In this document: in pieces, positions 3,163 through 38,058 of the stretch
Layout of the letters: each line of letters opens with the position of its first letter
Position numbering within the stretch: the stretch's first letter is position 1
UHGV virus genome: UHGV-1783985
Length of the DNA stretch: 38,400 bases
From: a virus
Strand: one strand, 5' to 3'
The notes under the pieces: model-generated
The model's database searches: none
What the model was told of the DNA's origin: nothing
What the model saw: the letters and a program-made list of their open reading frames with translations, nothing else
Program-made: the position numbers and the translations under genes

Positions 3163-3416
3163 GTAAGTCTCCTTTTCTTTCGTTATATTTGCGTTTAGTT
3201 GATTATATTTTGACTAAACCTACTAGGCGGAAAAGTGTTAAATCCAGGCGAGTTAGTCATGAACGGGTTATATTCCTGATGATCATGTGAGTCTGACTGC
3301 TTTACAAATAAGCAAATAAATTTACACATATTATTTTTGTGATCGTCATCACAAAAATAACCTTCAATAAAGGTTATTTATAATATTGTACGTTCATGTT
3401 TTTTTTGGCAAGGAAA

Positions 3417-3518
3417 ATGGAATCATCAAAAAAAGAACAATTTAGCAACTTATTAATAAAAGTTGTTATTGGTATCGCTGTAGTTGAATACATTTATCTT
3501 TTTGTGAGATATTTTTAA
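3417..3518 (+). CDS. Candidate 33-aa hydrophobic peptide
   Basis: ATG at 3417 preceded by AAGGAAA; translation MESSKKEQFSNLLIKVVIGIAVVEYIYLFVRYF; stop immediately followed by the 3521-3560 hairpin. Below the 60-aa ORF-track cutoff. Confidence 0.3.
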   Translation: MESSKKEQFSNLLIKVVIGIAVVEYIYLFVRYF

Positions 3519-9606: not shown

Positions 9607-11922
9607 TCAGATTTTGCAGGCTCCGTCGCACTCATCTTCTGGCTCGACGGCTACAGCTTGCGTCAGTGGATTCTGCGGTTCGTCGTCATCACGCTTTCCT
9701 GCCCCATCTCTGGTGTTGTGGTAGTAAAGCGTTTTAACCCCCATCTTGTAGGCGAGAAGCAAATCTGACAGTAGCGTCATCATTGGGACTTTATCGCCTT
9801 CAAAGCGAGAAGGGTCATAGTTGGTATTGGCTGAAATAGCCTGGTCAAAGAACTTCTGGATGATCGCCACCTTTGTCAGATAGCCGCGGTTGTCCGGCAT
9901 ATCCCACAGGTATTCATACTGTTTCTTCAGTTTTTCAAACTCAGGCACGACCATCTTAACGATGCCGTCCTTAGAAGATTTCACCGACACCGGTCCACGA
10001 GGCGGTTCGATGCCGTTGGTGGAATTAGTGATCTGGCTGGAAGTCTCGCATGGCATTTGTGCCGTCAGTGTGGAGTTGCGAAGACCGTATTTTGCAATAC
10101 GTTCACGCAGTTCTTCCCACGGCATCTTTAACTCAAAGTTGGTTTCACCACTTTCGTCTAATGAAGAACGGTAATGGTCGATCGGCAACTGACCAATTGC
10201 GTATTTGGTCTGCTCAAACCAGTCACACTCACCTTTAGCTTCAGCAAGTTGGCAGCTGGCATCGAGAAGGTAATACTGGATAGCTTCGAACGTTTCATGC
10301 ACCAGTTTATTGCCAGCGGTATCAGAATAACGAACGCCATTCTTTGCCAGGTAATAAGCAAAGTTGGTTACACCGATTCCCAGGCTACGACGAGCTTTGG
10401 CAGGCACTTCGGCTGCCTCCATCGGATAGTCTTGATAATCCAGTAACGAATCCAGTGCAGCGACGGCATAGAACGCCACCTCTTTAAGAGACTCCAGTGA
10501 ACGGATGGCTCCGAGATTAAAAGCGGATAAAGTGCAAAGCGCGATCTCACCGTTCGGGTCGTCGGTAAATGTCAGTGGACGGGTGGGTAGGGTGATCTCC
10601 ATACACAGGTTTGACTGGCGGACAGGTGCAAGAGCAGGAATGAAAGCGCCATGCTCGTTAATATGATCGACGTTCGCAATATAAATTCGGCCCGTGGACG
10701 CACGTTCCTGCATCAGATATGAGAACAGCTCAATGGCAGGCACTGACTTCTTGCGAATTGAATCATCGGCTTCGTATTTATGGTACAGCTTTTCAAACAG
10801 ATCCTGGTCTGTGAAGAAGGCTTCGTACATATCAGGCACATCATGCGGGCTGAACAGAGTGATGTTCTCGCTTCTGACGAGTCGACGGTACATCAGACGG
10901 TTACTCATGACACCGTAATCAAGATGGCGAACGCGGTTTTCATCGATACCACGGTTATTTTTCACCACCAGCAGACTTTCAACTTCAAGATGCCAAATCG
11001 GGTAAAACGCTGTTGCTGCGCCACCACGGACACCACCTTGCGAGCAAGATTTAACAGCCGTCTGGAAATGCTTCAGGAATGGAATAACTCCGGTATGGGT
11101 GGCTTCACCATTGCGGATCTCACTGCCCAGCGCACGGATACGGCCAAAACCAATACCAATTCCAGCACGACGTGAAACGTAGTCGATAATTGCGGCTGAA
11201 GCTGCGCTAATCCCTTTCAGACTATCGCCAGACTCAATCAGCACACAACTGGAGAACTGACGGGTTGGAGTACGGACGCCGGCCATGATTGGTGTGGGCA
11301 GAGACAGTTTGAACGTACTTGTAACGTCATAGAAACCTTTGACCATCTCCATACGTGTTTTGCCAGCGCAGTCGTCTTCCCAATTCTGGAACAGACACAT
11401 GCCTACCAGCATATAGATATGTTGCGGCCCCTCATGAATCTCACCAGTAACACGGTTTTGAACGAGGTATTTGCTTTGCAATTGCACCGTAGCTGCATAG
11501 CCAAAAAGATCGTCACGTTTAGGCTTAATGTAATTGCCGAGTTCTTCGATCTCTTCAAACGAATAATGTGTCAGCAAATCCTTGTCATAAACGCCCTTGT
11601 TAACGTTCTTGACAATGTGTTGGTAGAAGTTCGGATAGTCGTAACGACCGAAGGCATCTTTGCGGATTTTAAAAATGTTCAGGCGGGCAGCCACCTGTGA
11701 GTAATTTGGTGCATCTGGTGAGATCAAATCAGCGGCAGATTTAACCAAAGCCTCATGCAACTGGCTGGTGGTAATCCCATCAAAAATGCTGGCCGCAGCT
11801 CCCATTGCTACAGCGGATGCGCTTACACCACGAATGCCTTCTACGCCATACATTACGACGCGGTTGTATTTTTCTTCGGATAACGGCTCTGTTTGGCCGT
11901 TACGTTTTACGATGCTTATCAT
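9607..11922 (-). CDS. nrdA: Ribonucleotide reductase class Ia alpha subunit
   Basis: 771-aa ORF with long stretches matching E. coli NrdA (VTGEI, LPTPIMAGVRTPTRQFSSCVLIE, SCSQGGVRGGAAT, NLCMEI, C-terminal GACKI). Confidence 0.92.
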   Translation of the reverse strand: MISIVKRNGQTEPLSEEKYNRVVMYGVEGIRGVSASAVAMGAAASIFDGITTSQLHEALVKSAADLISPDAPNYSQVAARLNIFKIRKDAFGRYDYPNFYQHIVKNVNKGVYDKDLLTHYSFEEIEELGNYIKPKRDDLFGYAATVQLQSKYLVQNRVTGEIHEGPQHIYMLVGMCLFQNWEDDCAGKTRMEMVKGFYDVTSTFKLSLPTPIMAGVRTPTRQFSSCVLIESGDSLKGISAASAAIIDYVSRRAGIGIGFGRIRALGSEIRNGEATHTGVIPFLKHFQTAVKSCSQGGVRGGAATAFYPIWHLEVESLLVVKNNRGIDENRVRHLDYGVMSNRLMYRRLVRSENITLFSPHDVPDMYEAFFTDQDLFEKLYHKYEADDSIRKKSVPAIELFSYLMQERASTGRIYIANVDHINEHGAFIPALAPVRQSNLCMEITLPTRPLTFTDDPNGEIALCTLSAFNLGAIRSLESLKEVAFYAVAALDSLLDYQDYPMEAAEVPAKARRSLGIGVTNFAYYLAKNGVRYSDTAGNKLVHETFEAIQYYLLDASCQLAEAKGECDWFEQTKYAIGQLPIDHYRSSLDESGETNFELKMPWEELRERIAKYGLRNSTLTAQMPCETSSQITNSTNGIEPPRGPVSVKSSKDGIVKMVVPEFEKLKKQYEYLWDMPDNRGYLTKVAIIQKFFDQAISANTNYDPSRFEGDKVPMMTLLSDLLLAYKMGVKTLYYHNTRDGAGKRDDDEPQNPLTQAVAVEPEDECDGACKI

Positions 11923-22170: not shown

Positions 22171-24348
22171 TTACCCTTCTACTGACTCCGTGGGGGTATC
22201 TTTTGCTCTCCGGTCGTCGATTGCCTGTAAAGCCGCAATGATTTCAGCTAGTGGCTTCTCCCGATACATCTCGACGATCTGTGATTTGGTGTATTTCTTG
22301 TCACCAATTTCTACGCGCCCGCTGGCGTTCTTTGGCAGGTATCCTTCTTCCAGCATGTACTCGACGAGCGATTCGATAACGTCGAGGCCACGAGTAGGAT
22401 CGAAGTAGAATTTCCAGGTGCATTTGCCATACGGTGGTGCAACTTTGTTTTTGATGCACTCTGCGCCTACGTCCTGACCGATCTTCTCTTTACCATCCTT
22501 CATCACCGATGCACCGAGACGGATGCGCACAGAAGCGTAAAACTTCGGTGAATCGCCACCTGGTGACGTGCAATTGTGAACGATAAATCCATTTGCCGAA
22601 TTTCCAACCATATAGTTATGGTTGTCTTCAACACCAATGTCATAACGTCGTGTTAATGTTCTCCCCGCTCCCTTTTTTACCTTGCTCTCGCGGACATCTT
22701 TGACGACCGTCCAATGTTCATAGAATGAGACTACCGGTTGCATATCATAATTATCGACGAACTTGCCACGATACTCCGAGGGGAGCTTGTACTGCATAGA
22801 ATCAAAGACAAACGATGCAATATTCTCAGCAATTATGGCGCTGGATTCCTGGTCAAAGAGGAGGCCTCCCTTACGCGCGTTAACTTTTGATCTGATGCTG
22901 AATTTGTCGTACAGGATATCGGCCAGGTTTTGGAGATACCCTCTGCCACAGTGTTTTTTAGCCTTACGTTTAAATGAAATGTCGTATCGACCTCTGCTAT
23001 CAAGATGACCGTCATCCATTACCAGTAGAGCGAAGTTTTGCCAGGAGGCAAACTCCGTAAACACTTTTAGCGGATTTCTGACATAATCCTCCAGGTCTTT
23101 AAAATCGTTGTTAACAGGAGAGTCGTGTCTAATTCCGTACTTTCCTGACATTCGACCTAAAAGAACTTTTGTCTCTGTAAATTCGCCAAATAGATTCGAT
23201 AGCTTATCCGCTTTCCACTTTGAGTAAGACGGGTTCGCATTATCCTGAAAAGCAATGCCTGCTGTGGTTCTTTCGCCTCTCATCTTTCTAAAAGCGCAGT
23301 CTCCCACTAAGAAGCCGACAACTTGAGACCTGGTTTCATTAGTTAAAACAGTTGTGCGCTTGGTAAGCAATTCATCGCCTTCAATTATGTCTTTGGCCGT
23401 AGTCCAACCACGACGAGTCAGGATGCGGTGATCCTCTGTAAATGTCGCAGCCATAACCCCGTTTTTGGTATTGTGTCCAAGCGTGCTGATGTGTATCCAT
23501 TCCTCATCATCTGGCTTGCGGCCGTTATCATGCCATTCGTTGATTTTCTTTGGCTCGATAACGCCTGACTCTTCGTTGTACGACCACACATCTTTTTCTA
23601 TTTTGTTCTCTACAATTTCTCGGATAGTTGCGCTTGTGCCATCAACGAAAGGTATTATTGCATCCCCTCTCAAACATCTATCGCCAAACATAATTCCCAG
23701 ATTTGTCCTCATCTGATTGAGGAAAATTAAACAAGCATTGTATTTACGCGCCCACAAAGCCAGAGTAGGAAAGTTCGCACTCGTCGCACGCGCCAGCGCC
23801 GTATTGTCGTTCATGTTTAGCTGATCTTTGTCTTTGGCAGTGCCTTCAGCCATCTTTTCGAACTTCTCGGCTTTGGAGTTCGGAACCATAGACGCAAGTG
23901 AGTCAGCCACGATACAGATAGGTGCTGATTCAGGGATAAGCTCTTCATCACGTACCAATTTAAGTATTGTGCCGATCAACTCTACAGAGTCTTCGAAGGT
24001 ATCAGGCTGCTTGTATACCCACTGACCGTCATCCTCATCTGCGTTCAGGCCATTGGCGACAGCCAGGCCAACATCAAAACTGTTCTCATGATCGAGGAAT
24101 ACCGCCAGACCATCTTGTTTCTGAGCGGATATCATTGCTGCTGTTGCCAAAAAGGTTTTCCCCGCGCTTGGCGGCCCGAATACTTCTACGATACGACCAC
24201 ATGGGAAACCGCCATCGTAACGACCGGAAATAGCTTTGTTTAACGGAGGAAAGCCTGTGTCAATCCAATGAGTTACTTTCTGAATTTCGTCGTTGCTACC
24301 GATTTTCTTTTTCAGAGCAAGTGCCAGTGCGGATTTTCCTTTTGCCAT
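22171..24348 (-). CDS. RecA/UvsX-family recombinase interrupted by an intein
   Basis: 725-aa ORF. N-extein has Walker A GPPSAGKT; junction ...GIMFGDR | CLRGD...FIVHN | CTSPGGDSPKFYASVR. Spliced extein (about 357 aa) restores the RecA motif MFG-x6-GG-x3-KFYASVR. Confidence 0.8.
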   Translation of the reverse strand: MAKGKSALALALKKKIGSNDEIQKVTHWIDTGFPPLNKAISGRYDGGFPCGRIVEVFGPPSAGKTFLATAAMISAQKQDGLAVFLDHENSFDVGLAVANGLNADEDDGQWVYKQPDTFEDSVELIGTILKLVRDEELIPESAPICIVADSLASMVPNSKAEKFEKMAEGTAKDKDQLNMNDNTALARATSANFPTLALWARKYNACLIFLNQMRTNLGIMFGDRCLRGDAIIPFVDGTSATIREIVENKIEKDVWSYNEESGVIEPKKINEWHDNGRKPDDEEWIHISTLGHNTKNGVMAATFTEDHRILTRRGWTTAKDIIEGDELLTKRTTVLTNETRSQVVGFLVGDCAFRKMRGERTTAGIAFQDNANPSYSKWKADKLSNLFGEFTETKVLLGRMSGKYGIRHDSPVNNDFKDLEDYVRNPLKVFTEFASWQNFALLVMDDGHLDSRGRYDISFKRKAKKHCGRGYLQNLADILYDKFSIRSKVNARKGGLLFDQESSAIIAENIASFVFDSMQYKLPSEYRGKFVDNYDMQPVVSFYEHWTVVKDVRESKVKKGAGRTLTRRYDIGVEDNHNYMVGNSANGFIVHNCTSPGGDSPKFYASVRIRLGASVMKDGKEKIGQDVGAECIKNKVAPPYGKCTWKFYFDPTRGLDVIESLVEYMLEEGYLPKNASGRVEIGDKKYTKSQIVEMYREKPLAEIIAALQAIDDRRAKDTPTESVEG
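22573..23676 (-). mobile_element. Intein with LAGLIDADG homing-endonuclease domain inside the recombinase gene
   Basis: Residues 225-592: starts with Cys (CLRGDAIIPFVDG), ends HN followed by Cys+1; internal LAGLIDADG-like motifs VGFLVGDCAF and LLVMDDGHLD. Codon boundaries checked against the sequence. Confidence 0.75.
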
Positions 24349-31025: not shown

Positions 31026-33308
31026 TTAACCAAATATTTTTTGAACAACTTCACGTGCCGCTTGCGCAGAAGCTGAAGGGAGTTTGTTAATGAAAGAACG
31101 CTCAATACCTGTCACAAAATCGCCTCGCATCATTCCAATCTTGGCCGACAACAAAAGCTCACGAGGCCCAATTGGTTGGCTAATATTGTGTTCTTCGTAT
31201 CCATCGCGAACGATACCGGCAAACTTAACCATCTTTTCAGCGTATTCATCCACAATGCCGGCATTTATCAACATGTTGATCTCTGCCTCTTTGCTCATGT
31301 ATTTCACATTCGAAACGATGCCAAAACGCGAAAAGTTCGCGGCGTTCTGGATGTTTGTACCCTGGTACAAGCCGGTTTCATCACCAGATCCGTTCGTGTT
31401 GCCAGTGCCAATGAAAGCAAACCGTTCATGCGGAGTAATGCGACGCCATTCTGGAGTCGCCTCTTTGATGACCAACGCTTCACCTTCCAGCACTGGCTGA
31501 TACACGCCAAGAATTTGTGGAAACGCAAAGTCGTATTCATCCGCGAGGTAAACCCAGCCATGCTTCATTGCGAGCGCAAGCAAGCCAGGTTCGAAATACG
31601 TAGAGCCATCACGCGCCAGAATTTGCCCCGTAACATGTGCCTCTTCCATTGATGCTGTATGTTGGGCACGGATCAACGGGCGATTGAGCAAAGCACATAG
31701 CTGTGTAGGCAGAGTTGTATTGTGCGTAACGATAAACTCTTCGGTGATGTACAGTTCATCATCTGCGCTTACTTTTATACATATGCACTCAGCCTCGCCA
31801 TCTTCCTCGATAGAGGTGATAAATCTGCTTGGCGGATTCTTGGTAGATGGAGACCAGTTTTTGGATTTCCGATCAGCGGAAAATGGGTTAATGAACATTT
31901 TCACGTTAATATCAGCATAGTAACCGCTCTTATGACGTTCTGCGGCTCCATCTTTTACTATCGCAGTTCCGCCTAAAGACTGAACAAGAAACTTCACACA
32001 TGCAGCCAGCTTTTCAGACGTGGTGGAGAAGTTTGTACGGTTTTGTCTCACGCTTCCGTCTGTATCCATCAGTCCTCGGAGTAAAGCGAGGCGATTTTCA
32101 GTGGAGTCGAAGAGATATTCATCTGGGATAAATTTTTCCCCTGATTGCACATTCAAACCCAGCCGTTTAATCTCATCCATCATTCTGTTTTGACGGAACT
32201 TTTTGCAGTCGATGATATTAAATTGCCGCCCGTTTTCACTCGTGTTTCTGAGCTTGCTGGTGCGCATACCATCAGGAAGAAGAGAATCGATTCTTCTCTT
32301 GATATCAATGTCTTCCGTACCCACGCTCATTGCTGGCGTGTTCCCTAATAAGTAACCGTCTCCAATTAACGCACCTAATAAATAGGGATGGATGAGATGT
32401 TCCTGCGAGGGCCACTCGACAGCTTTAGTTAAAGGAACTTTGAACTTGCACTGACCACCAGAATTTCTGATTCCCAAGTCAATCATTTCTTTGGTCGTTC
32501 TGATTTTTGCATGTTGCTTGTAGCTCTTGCCGTTTTTGGTCTTGTATTCATGTGTAGGTAGGATATGCCAAAGATGTTCGCCGCAAGCTCGTGTGCTAGA
32601 ACCATCTCTAAAGGTGATGCGATAAATTGGCTTAATCCCTTGTGGGAAGATGCCTGTTATCTTTGTGGACTTTCCGTTAGATCCGAATACCTCATCACCA
32701 ACTTTCAAATCACCAAAGCGCACCATCCCTCTTGGTGTTGGGATTAGCGTATCTACTGGCTGGGCCTTGCCTGTTCCTGCATGACCCCACAAATAGCCAG
32801 GTATGCCAAGTTCAAGCATCATGAAAATATCTTTGATCAGTTCGAAGTCGCCATATACGTAGCCCTTCTTCACTTCGGGAACGAACTCTGGAAACGGCGT
32901 ATTGACGTTGACGCTAACCATGAGCGGCGTCCCACGTTTTGTTCCGAGTTCTTCCACCGTTACGTTTAGCAGTTCGTGAGCTGCGACCAGATCTGTCTTG
33001 TACTCAACTGTGCCTGTGTAGCCTGGGCTACTGGTCACGCCAGAAGATTTGGCCAGTTCGCTTTTTTGCTCGGCACGTTTAGCTTGAATTGCATCAAGTG
33101 CCTTTTTCGATAGCGTTGGCTCATCTGGAAACTGCGTTGTGTACATTTTCAGTACGGTGTCAGGGTCGGAATCTTTTACTGACTCAGGAATGCCCTCACA
33201 ATTACCATTGGCTACATGGGACTTAAAATAGTGAAATGATTTGCCGCACCACTTGCAAACAAGGTAATCAGAAGGATTTTTTTCATTTTGCAGTGCAGTA
33301 GTCGTCAT
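31026..33308 (-). CDS. CobS/MoxR-like AAA+ ATPase interrupted by an intein in the P-loop
   Basis: 760-aa ORF; junction ...GYLWGHAGTGK | AQPVD...IVTHN | TTLPTQLCALL. Spliced product (about 411 aa) restores Walker A GHAGTGKTTL; N-terminal Cys-rich segment CKWCGK...H...C. Confidence 0.7.
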   Translation of the reverse strand: MTTTALQNEKNPSDYLVCKWCGKSFHYFKSHVANGNCEGIPESVKDSDPDTVLKMYTTQFPDEPTLSKKALDAIQAKRAEQKSELAKSSGVTSSPGYTGTVEYKTDLVAAHELLNVTVEELGTKRGTPLMVSVNVNTPFPEFVPEVKKGYVYGDFELIKDIFMMLELGIPGYLWGHAGTGKAQPVDTLIPTPRGMVRFGDLKVGDEVFGSNGKSTKITGIFPQGIKPIYRITFRDGSSTRACGEHLWHILPTHEYKTKNGKSYKQHAKIRTTKEMIDLGIRNSGGQCKFKVPLTKAVEWPSQEHLIHPYLLGALIGDGYLLGNTPAMSVGTEDIDIKRRIDSLLPDGMRTSKLRNTSENGRQFNIIDCKKFRQNRMMDEIKRLGLNVQSGEKFIPDEYLFDSTENRLALLRGLMDTDGSVRQNRTNFSTTSEKLAACVKFLVQSLGGTAIVKDGAAERHKSGYYADINVKMFINPFSADRKSKNWSPSTKNPPSRFITSIEEDGEAECICIKVSADDELYITEEFIVTHNTTLPTQLCALLNRPLIRAQHTASMEEAHVTGQILARDGSTYFEPGLLALAMKHGWVYLADEYDFAFPQILGVYQPVLEGEALVIKEATPEWRRITPHERFAFIGTGNTNGSGDETGLYQGTNIQNAANFSRFGIVSNVKYMSKEAEINMLINAGIVDEYAEKMVKFAGIVRDGYEEHNISQPIGPRELLLSAKIGMMRGDFVTGIERSFINKLPSASAQAAREVVQKIFG
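31719..32765 (-). mobile_element. Intein (Ala-1, candidate class 3) with LAGLIDADG homing-endonuclease domain inside the AAA+ ATPase gene
   Basis: Residues 182-530: begins with Ala, ends THN with Thr+1; Trp in block-B-like ACGEHLWHIL, Cys in block-F-like ECICIKV, Thr in terminal VTHN (WCT arrangement); LAGLIDADG motifs LLGALIGDGYL and LLRGLMDTDGSV. Codon boundaries checked. Confidence 0.6.
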
Positions 33309-33403: not shown

Positions 33404-35512
33404 TCACTTCAAAATGATACGAGATAGTTCAGTAACTACAGATGAACCAAGACTATCAACGCTCGTTACCAGGGCATGATTTGAGTAAAATCTCTCCGGT
33501 GCGTCAGTCATGATGCCAATTGCCATCAAATCAATGTCAGTCTGCGTTTCAATTTGCTTCGCAACCGAACGCAAATGAGCGTCAAACCCTCTCCCAACAG
33601 CCCACGGCGCGCCATCACTCAGAACAAGCATGATCTTCCTGTCCTCCATGCGACCGGAAAATAACGATGCAAGGCTGGCTATACTTTCACCATCCACGTT
33701 ATTAAGAAGTGGGAATGTGTAGCCTACGCACCCCATACGTGAGCGAACTTCGCGAGAATTTACCTTTTCATTCCAATTTTTGATGATAGGTAGCATTAAA
33801 GACTCAAAGCGAGAGAACTCATACTTGACAGCCTTAAGTTCTCCTGCCGCCATATGACTACCAAATGTAGTGAAGCCGGTGATAATGTTGGGAACATTTA
33901 TTCGATCAAGGGCATCGGCGATGGTATATGCACTTGCAAGAGCCAATTGTATCGTTATACCACACATTGAACCTGATAAATCAATCACTTGTTGAACACA
34001 GGCGTTAACGGCTTTAGATTCTTCTTTTTTACGAAACACGCGATCATCATTCATTGCTAATCTGTAGATACTAGAACCATGAATGCGCCCCCGACGCTGG
34101 CCCGGTATAAACTGAACTCTGTTTCTGCTTGCTATTGCTCGCTCCAGGTCTTTTGCCAGCGTCGACGAAACACCTGACGAAAGATGCTTTTCAATATATT
34201 TGTCGAAGAGCTGGTTGCCTTCAGGAACGATGCGATAGCGGCTGATTGGATATCCTCCTAAATCAATATCGGAGAATGTTTTAATAAGCCGTTTGATATG
34301 GGCTTCTGCCTGATCAATCGAGCCGATGAAGTCGTATGAGCGATTGTATGGCCTGTATTCGCTTTTCGAGCTTTCTGTTAACTCGCTTTTAATCGTTTCG
34401 GATATAGCATCTTCTGTCATGCCTCCGACTTCATCTTCTATGCTATCCAGCTCCTCTAAAGCCTCTTCCAGACTCATTTTTGACGGAGTTGGAATATCTG
34501 AAGAGCCGTCTTCTGTCGTTTTTCTTTTTTCGTGGTCAGCGGTTAATGATTCTGACGCCGCGTTATCAGAAGCATCAGAATCTGATACCTCTTTATCATT
34601 TTCTGTATCATCGAATATTGTTTCTGATGATTCAGAATTATCTGAATCATTACTGTCGTTATTATCATGTTTGTGCTTACTGTGTGATTCTGATTTGATA
34701 GATTTGTGATTATCTAACGATGAGGGTGTCTCATGATCTTCGTTATCTTCATTGTTTTCTCCAGAGGCATCCGTCTGGTCAGCGTCTGAAGGATCGGAAG
34801 TTTTTCCCGGAGCTGACTCCTTACCTTTGCTTTCGCTTTCAGTGTCTTTGAGGATCTTAGCTATGGTCGCAGCCACCTTTACACAATCCTCGGTGCAAGA
34901 CATGTTACGCACGGCCACATCGATACCATGTTCTTTTAATAATGAAATTGGTTTCTCAATGACAGGCCAGTATTCATCCATGAAATCTACGAACGGTGCT
35001 TGGCCATCCCAGGCTCTTACAACCGGACAGAGAAAGAAGTTTAGAAAAAGCGCGCGCTGATCTTTGCCACAATAAGCAATAGCCTCTGAAGCCTTTGGTT
35101 TAAAGACTTTTCCGATTATAAGGCGCTGAGTTGCCATCAGATTACGTCTCGTTCCGTTAAAGACCTGCCCCATTTTTCGCTCGATGAACACGTCTTCTAA
35201 GGCATTCCATAGCGACCAGGAAGGAACGCGTCCTTTTTCTCTCATTTTGTTGGACACACGAATATCGGTAAACAAAATGTGAGCAACCTCATGATCGAGA
35301 AATCCGCGCACAGCATTCATCAATGCCGGTGTTGCGTTATCCGGGATTGATGGGATGTTTACGAGAATTGGCTCTCCATCATCGTTATAGCGTACATAAG
35401 CGTCGTCCCCTCGTTCTGCAACAGGGATGTTTTTACCTGAAAGGAGAGCGACTACTCGTTTTACACTGTCACGGAAGTCCTGAACCTCTTTGATGGAACG
35501 TTTTTTAGACAT
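33404..35512 (-). CDS. vWA-domain protein (CobT-like partner of the AAA+ ATPase) with long acidic low-complexity insert
   Basis: 702 aa; C-terminal vWA-like block (VIDLSGSM, ITGFTTFG, VLSDGAPW); central 130 residues are S/D/E/N-rich (SDPSDADQTDASGENNEDNEDHET...). Confidence 0.65.
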   Translation of the reverse strand: MSKKRSIKEVQDFRDSVKRVVALLSGKNIPVAERGDDAYVRYNDDGEPILVNIPSIPDNATPALMNAVRGFLDHEVAHILFTDIRVSNKMREKGRVPSWSLWNALEDVFIERKMGQVFNGTRRNLMATQRLIIGKVFKPKASEAIAYCGKDQRALFLNFFLCPVVRAWDGQAPFVDFMDEYWPVIEKPISLLKEHGIDVAVRNMSCTEDCVKVAATIAKILKDTESESKGKESAPGKTSDPSDADQTDASGENNEDNEDHETPSSLDNHKSIKSESHSKHKHDNNDSNDSDNSESSETIFDDTENDKEVSDSDASDNAASESLTADHEKRKTTEDGSSDIPTPSKMSLEEALEELDSIEDEVGGMTEDAISETIKSELTESSKSEYRPYNRSYDFIGSIDQAEAHIKRLIKTFSDIDLGGYPISRYRIVPEGNQLFDKYIEKHLSSGVSSTLAKDLERAIASRNRVQFIPGQRRGRIHGSSIYRLAMNDDRVFRKKEESKAVNACVQQVIDLSGSMCGITIQLALASAYTIADALDRINVPNIITGFTTFGSHMAAGELKAVKYEFSRFESLMLPIIKNWNEKVNSREVRSRMGCVGYTFPLLNNVDGESIASLASLFSGRMEDRKIMLVLSDGAPWAVGRGFDAHLRSVAKQIETQTDIDLMAIGIMTDAPERFYSNHALVTSVDSLGSSVVTELSRIILK

Positions 35513-37768: not shown

Positions 37769-38014
37769 TCAGAGGGTGCTGACGTATGCAGCCAGTTCTG
37801 TGTATCCGCCAATCGGCTGGCCGTCGATCAGTACCTGTGGGATAGTCTCTACCGGTTTACCAACAATTTCACTTAGTTTTTCCTTGTCGATACCGGCTGT
37901 GGTGATGTCGATGTACTCATAATCACCGCAGCCATGCCCCTTTAGTTGCTTTGCCAGCTCGACCGCACGTTTGCAGTAAGAGCAGTTATCTCGTCCGTAG
38001 ATAGTGATCGTCAT
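37769..38014 (-). CDS. Glutaredoxin-like protein (NrdH/NrdC-type redoxin)
   Basis: 81 aa; MTITIYGRDNCSYCKRA with CxxC active site and glutaredoxin-like C-terminal region VETIPQVLIDGQPIGGYTEL. Confidence 0.8.
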   Translation of the reverse strand: MTITIYGRDNCSYCKRAVELAKQLKGHGCGDYEYIDITTAGIDKEKLSEIVGKPVETIPQVLIDGQPIGGYTELAAYVSTL

Positions 38015-38058
38015 TACTTCTCCTTACAAAGTTCGATTTGACTATTTCAGTTACAAAA

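Follow-up and report, generated by a model that had tools for sequence, protein, structure and literature searches.

Class 3 inteins are defined by the lack of Cys, Ser or Thr at position 1 and by a noncontiguous Trp-Cys-Thr (WCT) triplet at positions B12, F4 and G5 (PMC2807308, PMC5050341). They usually have Ser or Thr, rarely Cys, as the +1 residue and lie mostly in ATPase P-loops, a location described from the time of the class's definition onward (PMC2807308, PMC5050341). The prototype is the DnaB intein of mycobacteriophage Bethlehem, and others include the P-loop inteins of mycobacteriophage TerL proteins and the MsmDnaB1 and MchDnaB1 mini-inteins. Here we analyzed a 38,400-nucleotide (nt) stretch of the virus genome UHGV-1783985 (the window), in which a gene for a CobS-like AAA+ ATPase is interrupted by a segment of 349 amino acids (aa). 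This segment shares with the known class 3 inteins the WCT triplet, the lack of a nucleophile at position 1, the C-terminal His-Asn, Thr at +1, a predicted HINT fold, insertion between Lys and Ser/Thr of a P-loop, and a phage-borne host gene. It differs from them in that the solved class 3 structures have no endonuclease domain, whereas the window intein keeps a full one, and in that the known hosts are helicase, terminase and PhoH, whereas the host here is a CobS-like, MoxR-type AAA+ ATPase. We conclude that the segment is very probably a full-length class 3 intein with a LAGLIDADG homing endonuclease, inserted in the Walker A motif (GxxGxGK|T; a vertical bar marks a junction) of the CobS-like ATPase of what we take to be an SSU5/pHCM2-type E. 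coli phage-plasmid.

The precursor gene (31026..33308) lies on the minus strand, as do the other genes and gene parts of the window given below, and in the list of open reading frames (ORFs) it encodes 760 aa followed by a stop codon. It is an AAA+ ATPase of the AAA_5/PHROG 249 type that is split by the intein, and its reading frame is unbroken across 2283 nt. The N-extein (aa 1-181; 32766..33308) ends in the start of the Walker A motif, GHAGTGK (aa 175-181; 32766..32786). The intein (aa 182-530; 31719..32765) comprises a splicing domain of the HINT type, into which a LAGLIDADG homing endonuclease domain is set, and the C-extein (aa 531-760 plus stop; 31026..31718) opens with Thr531 (codon 31716..31718). 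Direct translation showed that the insert starts with AQPVDTLIPTP and ends with EEFIVTHN, after which the frame continues with TTLPTQ; the N-junction of this intein-bearing allele is the 27-mer GGAACAGGCAAGGCCCAGCCAGTAGAT. Excision of the 349 aa in silico gave GHAGTGKTTLP, in which Thr531 has a double role, as the +1 splicing residue and as the Ser/Thr of Walker A. When the Pfam database was searched with the full protein, AAA_5 matched only downstream of the insert (E 2.6e-10), whereas in the spliced sequence a longer match (E 1.1e-15) ran through the Walker A region. An earlier sequence-only reading of the window had placed an insert at 31719-32765, between GHAGTGK and TTL of the ATPase frame, and had proposed that its removal restores the Walker A motif; its coordinates are exact to the base, and the gain in the AAA_5 match bears the proposal out. 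The insert alone matched LAGLIDADG_3 (E 8e-09) and Hom_end (E 2e-06), both above the curated cut-offs. Guanine-plus-cytosine content was 44.3% in the intein, 47.5% in the exteins and 45.9% in the window; on this comparison, base composition is no marker of foreign origin for the insert.

Megablast searches with the gene found an uninterrupted allele in 4 phage records (Escherichia phages Cyrano, CMS-2020a with two records, and PhiR41_1), in 219 plasmids of complete E. coli genomes and in 194 PLSDB plasmids; the three sets overlap, and they come to more than 400 records as summed. The intein-free alleles are ORFs of 1236 bp whose flanks are 97-99% identical to the window gene at the nucleotide level. 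The matches always came as two pieces, together covering 54% of the query and spanning 1236 bp, and the insert was present in none of the matched phage, E. coli plasmid or PLSDB records, as no record covered more than 54% of the gene by megablast. Without the insert, the window gene aligns collinearly with the intein-free alleles over 1236 nt, with 21 differences from plasmid pEC881_2 (NZ_CP019027.1) and 36 from Cyrano. The break falls exactly at Lys181|Thr531, which settles the insertion point that the sequence-only reading had left to a comparison with intein-free homologs. In addition, a 90-nt probe across the spliced junction found the site uninterrupted in 770 PLSDB plasmids of Enterobacterales, from Klebsiella, Escherichia, Enterobacter, Yersinia, Salmonella, Citrobacter and others. 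Because hundreds of near-identical homologs have no such segment, we regard it as an insertion and not as a domain of the family. A normal inserted domain, the outcome that the sequence-only reading had named as fatal to its proposal, is refuted by these intein-free alleles.

Three public contigs from metagenome assemblies also carry the exact 760-aa protein, among them Logan SRR1761716 and ENA ERZ1749178 (a 49-kb contig); two of the three were retrieved, and in both the protein is identical to that of the window. As a separate observation on the protein searches, the best 120 protein matches did not include the E. coli CobS-like proteins that are nearly identical and free of the intein (one of them, WP_078207895.1, shares 98% identity in the exteins), and more distant intein-free proteins of Xenorhabdus did appear among them. 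The limit of 8000 scored candidates, or the make-up of the database, may account for this.

The residues that assign the intein to class 3 are found in four conserved blocks. Block A (AQPVDTLIPTPRG; 32727..32765) has no N-terminal nucleophile and begins with Ala1 (codon 32763..32765). Block B (GSSTRACGEHLWHI; 32562..32603) holds Cys61 (B7), His64 (B10; 32574..32576) and Trp66 (B12; 32568..32570), with the Trp two residues past the His in the motif CGEHLW. Block F (GEAECICIKVSADDELY; 31749..31799) holds, within ECICIKV, Cys327 (F2) and Cys329 (F4; 31779..31781), the latter being the predicted initiating nucleophile. Block G, EEFIVTHN (31719..31742), supplies Thr347 (G5), His348 and Asn349, and Thr follows at +1. 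Thus at the sequence level the position-1 residue, the WCT triplet and the +1 residue are all those of class 3, and the Ala, Trp, Cys, Thr and terminal His-Asn that the sequence-only reading had picked out are all in place, as are its two LAGLIDADG motifs described below. Class 1 inteins have Cys, Ser or Thr at position 1, and here Ala1 occupies that position with no nucleophile adjacent to the junction. The intein also falls outside class 2 (the KlbA type), given its WCT triplet and its Thr at +1.

The same residues are conserved across the family. We took 124 homologous inserts from the proteins of a database search; counts for blocks B and F refer to 125 aligned inteins. The His and Trp of block B and the F4 Cys of block F are invariant (125/125 each), and Thr-His-Asn of block G is invariant in the homologs (124/124). 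Position 1 of the homologs is A (57), E (41), S (9), Q (8), P (6), C (2) or G (1), so that 113 of the 124 have A, E, Q, P or G there. The +1 residue is Thr in 112 homologs and Ser in the other 12, and the two residues that precede the insert are GK in 115/124. A separate alignment of 98 sequences (A1) gave the same invariant columns.

An AlphaFold2 model of the insert with 10 flanking residues on each side was of high confidence (predicted local distance difference test score 93.9, predicted template modelling score 0.92). When the whole model was compared with the PDB by Foldseek, the best match was PI-SceI (E 3.8e-19, template modelling score 0.70-0.73). The splicing part matched the mini-inteins gp41-1 and Ssp DnaB and the class 3 structures 6RIX, 6RIY and 6BS8 (MchDnaB1, MsmDnaB1), and the central part matched the LAGLIDADG endonuclease I-DmoI. 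In a sequence search of the PDB the nearest solved proteins were gp41-1 and the class 3 MchDnaB1 and MsmDnaB1 inteins; the matches to 6RIX and 6BS8 (E ~2.5e-07) are of low identity and cover the N-terminal splicing region only. PI-SceI, the Sce VMA1 intein, resembles the window intein in that a two-motif LAGLIDADG endonuclease is set into its HINT domain. It differs in being of class 1 (Cys1, Cys+1, no WCT) and shares only 15-18% identity with the window intein; it also carries an additional region for DNA recognition and exceeds the window intein in length by about 100 aa. The modelled fold, together with blocks A, B, F and G, the C-terminal His-Asn and the +1 nucleophile, indicates that the insert contains a HINT domain.

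The inserted domain is predicted to be a two-motif LAGLIDADG endonuclease from both its sequence and its model, with two LAGLIDADG helices, each ending in a catalytic acidic residue, in an alpha-beta-beta-alpha-beta-beta-alpha core. The first motif, LLGALIGDGY (32352..32381), has its catalytic Asp136 at 32358..32360, and the second, LLRGLMDTDGS (32052..32084), has its catalytic Asp236 at 32058..32060; both Asp residues are kept. In alignment A1 the G-D-G of the first motif is at least 90% conserved and the M-D-x-D-G of the second is invariant or nearly so.

The window intein has two cysteines, Cys61 and Cys327, beside the predicted catalytic Cys329. Cys61 (B7; codon 32583..32585) has a Cys counterpart in 27 of 125 homologs. 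Cys327 (F2), whose codon lies with that of Cys329 within 31779..31787, has one in only 10 of 125. MsmDnaB1 is a class 3 intein that is redox-regulated through a disulfide with its catalytic Cys (PMC6195587). By analogy, it is conceivable that Cys61 or Cys327 forms a disulfide with Cys329.

The sequence-only reading regarded inteins of this type as rare, which is not so in phages. By tblastn, homologs of the intein were found in 832 phage records, all at less than 60% identity, in helicases, terminase large subunits, primases and other ATPases, and a protein database search gave 1123 proteins at E <= 1e-10. Inserts homologous to it are found in unrelated helicases, PhoH, SNF2 and terminases. 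One of these proteins, PhoH-like and 1272 aa long (P0004), apparently carries three class 3-type inteins.

The closest relatives are inteins at the same site in three CobS-like proteins of Xenorhabdus phage-plasmids, from Xenorhabdus sp. KJ12.1 (P0001), X. hominickii (P0002) and X. bovienii (P0003). They are 61-68% identical to the window intein, and the next best intein is 55% identical. They share with the window the gene, the site (GHAGTGK|AQP...FIVTHN|T) and the neighbourhood, which consists of genes for CobT-like, CobS-like and DnaE proteins and in one case lies on a 110-kb contig. A neighbor-joining tree on p-distances placed the four CobS-like inteins in an exclusive clade in 100 of 100 bootstrap replicates. 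The source names of the Xenorhabdus homologs are AAA family ATPase, porphyrin biosynthesis protein and cobaltochelatase subunit, and the intein goes unmentioned in them. In X. bovienii the first LAGLIDADG motif is degenerate (IVDDY). Between the inteins of the window and Xenorhabdus sp. KJ12.1, the proportion of nonsynonymous differences (pN) is 0.22 and that of synonymous differences (pS) 0.81, and for the conserved C-extein the values are 0.23 and 0.77; we give pN and pS in place of the substitution-rate ratio dN/dS because synonymous sites are saturated (pS ~0.8). As pN is far below pS, as in the conserved C-extein, the intein protein is under purifying selection.

A second group of relatives lies in the P-loops of phage UvrD/RecD-like helicases, as in Klebsiella phage KP13-16, Vibrio phages 501E54-1 and 424E50-1 and many metagenomic proteins. 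They are 45-55% identical to the window intein over 349 aa and have its endonuclease type, its invariant residues and junctions of the form G[TS]GK|AQP...FIVTHN|T[ST]. In the UvrD-like helicases of KP13-16 and 501E54-1 the junctions read AKAGTGK|AQPL…FIVTHN|TSTL and ASAGSGK|AQPI…FIVTHN|TTTL, respectively. The helicase exteins belong to a family unrelated to the CobS-like exteins, which shows that this intein lineage moves between the P-loops of different ATPases. The KP13-16 helicase (1198 aa; 2402..5998 of L003) also has an apparent second, class 1-like intein downstream (…GDKHQ|CVSGETVL…GILSHN|CIYGW).

The sequence around the insertion site differs between alleles with and without the intein. 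The window reads AAG|ACAACTCTG, whereas the intein-free alleles read AAA|TCGTCATTG, so that 6 of the 8 bases differ from every intein-free allele. In codons, AAG|ACA ACT CTG stands against AAA|TCG TCA TTG, which replaces Ser-Ser by Thr-Thr; the intein-free E. coli alleles accordingly read SSLP at the C-junction. The nearest other differences from pEC881_2 lie 400 nt upstream and 32 nt downstream. The intein-free site, which is the predicted target of the endonuclease, is GGAACAGGCAAA|TCGTCATTGCC; in E. coli the site reads …GGAACAGGCAAATCGTCATTGCCTACA…, and the spliced window site reads …GGCAAGACAACTCTGCC…. The same contrast is seen in Xenorhabdus, where the intein-bearing KJ12.1 protein has TTLPTQ and an intein-free protein 92.5% identical to it (P0005) has SSLPTQ. 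Among the 770 PLSDB plasmids none has the Thr-Thr junction without the intein, and the best match to the spliced junction is 93.3%; an allele of that kind would have pointed to precise loss of the intein or to a pre-adapted site. From this pattern we read the Thr-Thr substitutions as a short co-conversion tract that would have travelled with the intein; alternatively, Thr at +1 or endonuclease resistance may have been selected for.

The exteins of the window are 98-99% identical to those of intein-free E. coli plasmids, and the Xenorhabdus exteins are 53-56% identical to them. As no known intein is closer than 68% identity, the intein of the window allele must have come from an unsampled donor. 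Judging from these identities, the allele was acquired separately, inside the E. coli lineage. A megablast search of PLSDB plasmids with the intein DNA gave no match. Scans with back-translated peptides found in IMG/VR only inteins of 27-37% identity and in the GTDB species representatives none.

On the favoured reading, the 760-aa precursor would be translated with its ATP-binding loop split. From what is established for P-loop NTPases, a protein with a split Walker A loop should not bind ATP. We infer splicing, its chemical route and endonuclease activity by analogy with the characterised class 3 inteins, on which the following steps are modelled (PMC2807308, PMC6195587, PMC7664689). In class 3 inteins splicing opens with an attack by the block F Cys on the N-junction, and this Cys is indispensable. 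Here Cys329, helped by His64, Trp66 and Thr347, would attack the Lys181-Ala182 bond to form a branched thioester. A Cys-His-Thr triad has been described for MchDnaB1 (PMC7664689), and Cys329, His64 and Thr347 would act as a triad of this kind, while Trp66 would pack on the His of block B. The N-extein would then be transferred from the Cys329 thioester to the hydroxyl of Thr531, cyclisation of Asn349 would free the intein, and an O-to-N shift would yield a 411-aa ATPase with the sequence GHAGTGKTTLP. When two phage-plasmids share a cell, the freed endonuclease would be expected to cut intein-free alleles at the same site, and repair off the intein-bearing copy would install the intein plus a few flanking bases.

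Several other explanations were weighed against this one. That the 349-aa segment is an ordinary accessory domain of the ATPase family, or an artefact of assembly, is so improbable that we give it next to no weight. We found no support for it, and NCBI names the Xenorhabdus homologs just AAA family ATPase or porphyrin biosynthesis protein. Against it, hundreds of near-identical genes have no segment at precisely this site, unrelated proteins contain inserts homologous to the segment, and the same sequence was assembled independently in three contigs. It is very unlikely, too, that a real intein here splices by another route, either that of class 2, in which the +1 residue attacks the N-junction as in KlbA, or that of class 1 with shifted boundaries. 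An Ala start is indeed seen in the KlbA class 2 inteins (PMC2807308). However, class 2 inteins are without the WCT triplet (PMC2807308), which is complete and invariant here and is accompanied by Thr at +1. Nor is there a Cys, Ser or Thr at or beside the N-junction (K|AQPVD), and both the HN|T end and the difference in length from the intein-free alleles, 349 aa, pin the boundaries down.

A somewhat more serious rival, which we still hold to be improbable, is an intein that is real but decayed, having lost splicing or homing, so that the CobS-like gene is inactive or reliant on residual cleavage. The rarity of the allele, absent from all of the ~400 near-identical plasmids and phages and from all 770 PLSDB plasmids, could mean that it is deleterious, and the degenerate motif in X. 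bovienii indicates that endonuclease decay does occur in this lineage. On the other hand, the frame is intact over 2283 nt, all family-invariant splicing residues and both endonuclease Asp residues are present, pN of the intein is far below pS and equal to that of the ATPase core, and the identical sequence recurs on three contigs of separate assemblies. Some points do weigh against a splicing and homing class 3 intein. The WCT triplet grafted alone into a class 1 intein did not bring about splicing (PMC7664689); because the grafted triplet alone is insufficient, we take it as a marker of the mechanism and not as proof. In addition, no donor above 68% identity was found in the protein search, IMG/VR or the GTDB representatives, so the homing event is a reconstruction, and the common E. 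coli allele differs from the window at 6 of the 8 junction bases, which bears on whether the predicted endonuclease would target it.

A broader scenario, taken jointly in all its parts, seems to us doubtful. It would have the window record a very large, otherwise intein-free and clinically widespread population of SSU5-type phage-plasmids at the beginning of its invasion by a class 3 intein that is competent for homing. The lineage would hop between the P-loops of unrelated ATPases, the Thr-Thr codons would be carried along, and a class 1 intein would have been picked up as well. As a further part of the same scenario, Cys61 and Cys327 would make splicing redox-conditional, as in MsmDnaB1, so that the DnaE-adjacent ATPase would be switched on only under reducing conditions.

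The window intein is a genuine and ordinary member of a well-known phage class, within a large, phage-borne sub-group that targets the P-loop at GK|[ST], and the current understanding of inteins is unchanged by it. It is notable mainly because nearly all related plasmids are without it, and it is a rare, apparently functional allele in a very common plasmid population that is otherwise intein-free. What is new is the host, a MoxR/CobS-like AAA+ ATPase added to those that harbour class 3 inteins, and also the type of element, an E. coli SSU5-type phage-plasmid. We found no literature that links inteins with CobS-like genes or with SSU5/pHCM2 phage-plasmids in the collection searched; because that collection is incomplete, this speaks only weakly for novelty. 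Apart from the junction, the alleles with and without the intein are about 1% divergent, and in a tractable host, E. coli, they form a natural test pair that is suited to work on homing, co-conversion and the target tolerance of the endonuclease. A compact class 3 intein with Thr at +1 that presumably splices in E. coli may also interest protein engineers. For annotation, the point is that the source names of the Xenorhabdus homologs omit the intein.

The spliced host protein matched PHROG 249 ('porphyrin biosynthesis') with E 2.6e-106. It scored 87 bits against the CobS model TIGR01650, whose cut-off is 558; because the score is far under the cut-off and yet the protein belongs to PHROG 249 and AAA_5, we call it CobS-like and not CobS. 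The upstream partner gene (33404..35512) encodes a CobT-like protein of 702 aa, which matched TIGR01651 CobT below its cut-off (E 2.8e-18) and the Pfam families CobT and CobT_C. The related plasmids and phages are ~108 kb in size, the plasmids being mostly non-mobilizable, and encode an integrase, a repressor, RepB, DnaE, RecA and NrdAB. From this annotation and from what is known of the group, we presume them to be SSU5/pHCM2-type phage-plasmids.

A second intein lies in the gene for a RecA-like recombinase (22171..24348), which encodes 725 aa as against 357 aa in pEC881_2. Its insert (22573..23676; 368 aa) has the junctions MFGDR|CLRGDAII…NGFIVHN|CTSPGG and matched Intein_splicing and LAGLIDADG_2 in Pfam. 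Because it has Cys1, a terminal HN and Cys at +1, we assign it to class 1. The intein-free allele reads QVRTKIGVMFGDP|TTSPGG, and substitutions in the flanks cluster at the junction there too.

Some further differences were seen between the window and pEC881_2, its closest plasmid. Identity is 90% over the first 3.2 kb of the window and 96-98% elsewhere, with a divergent stretch at 3249..3514. About 2.1 kb with three hypothetical genes is missing at window position ~20960, and ~1.5 kb is missing at 38014..38051. At 9855..10331 of pEC881_2 (L009), within a nucleotide-metabolism module, lies an annotated trimethoprim-resistance gene, dfrA51, and the window aligns there at ~98%.

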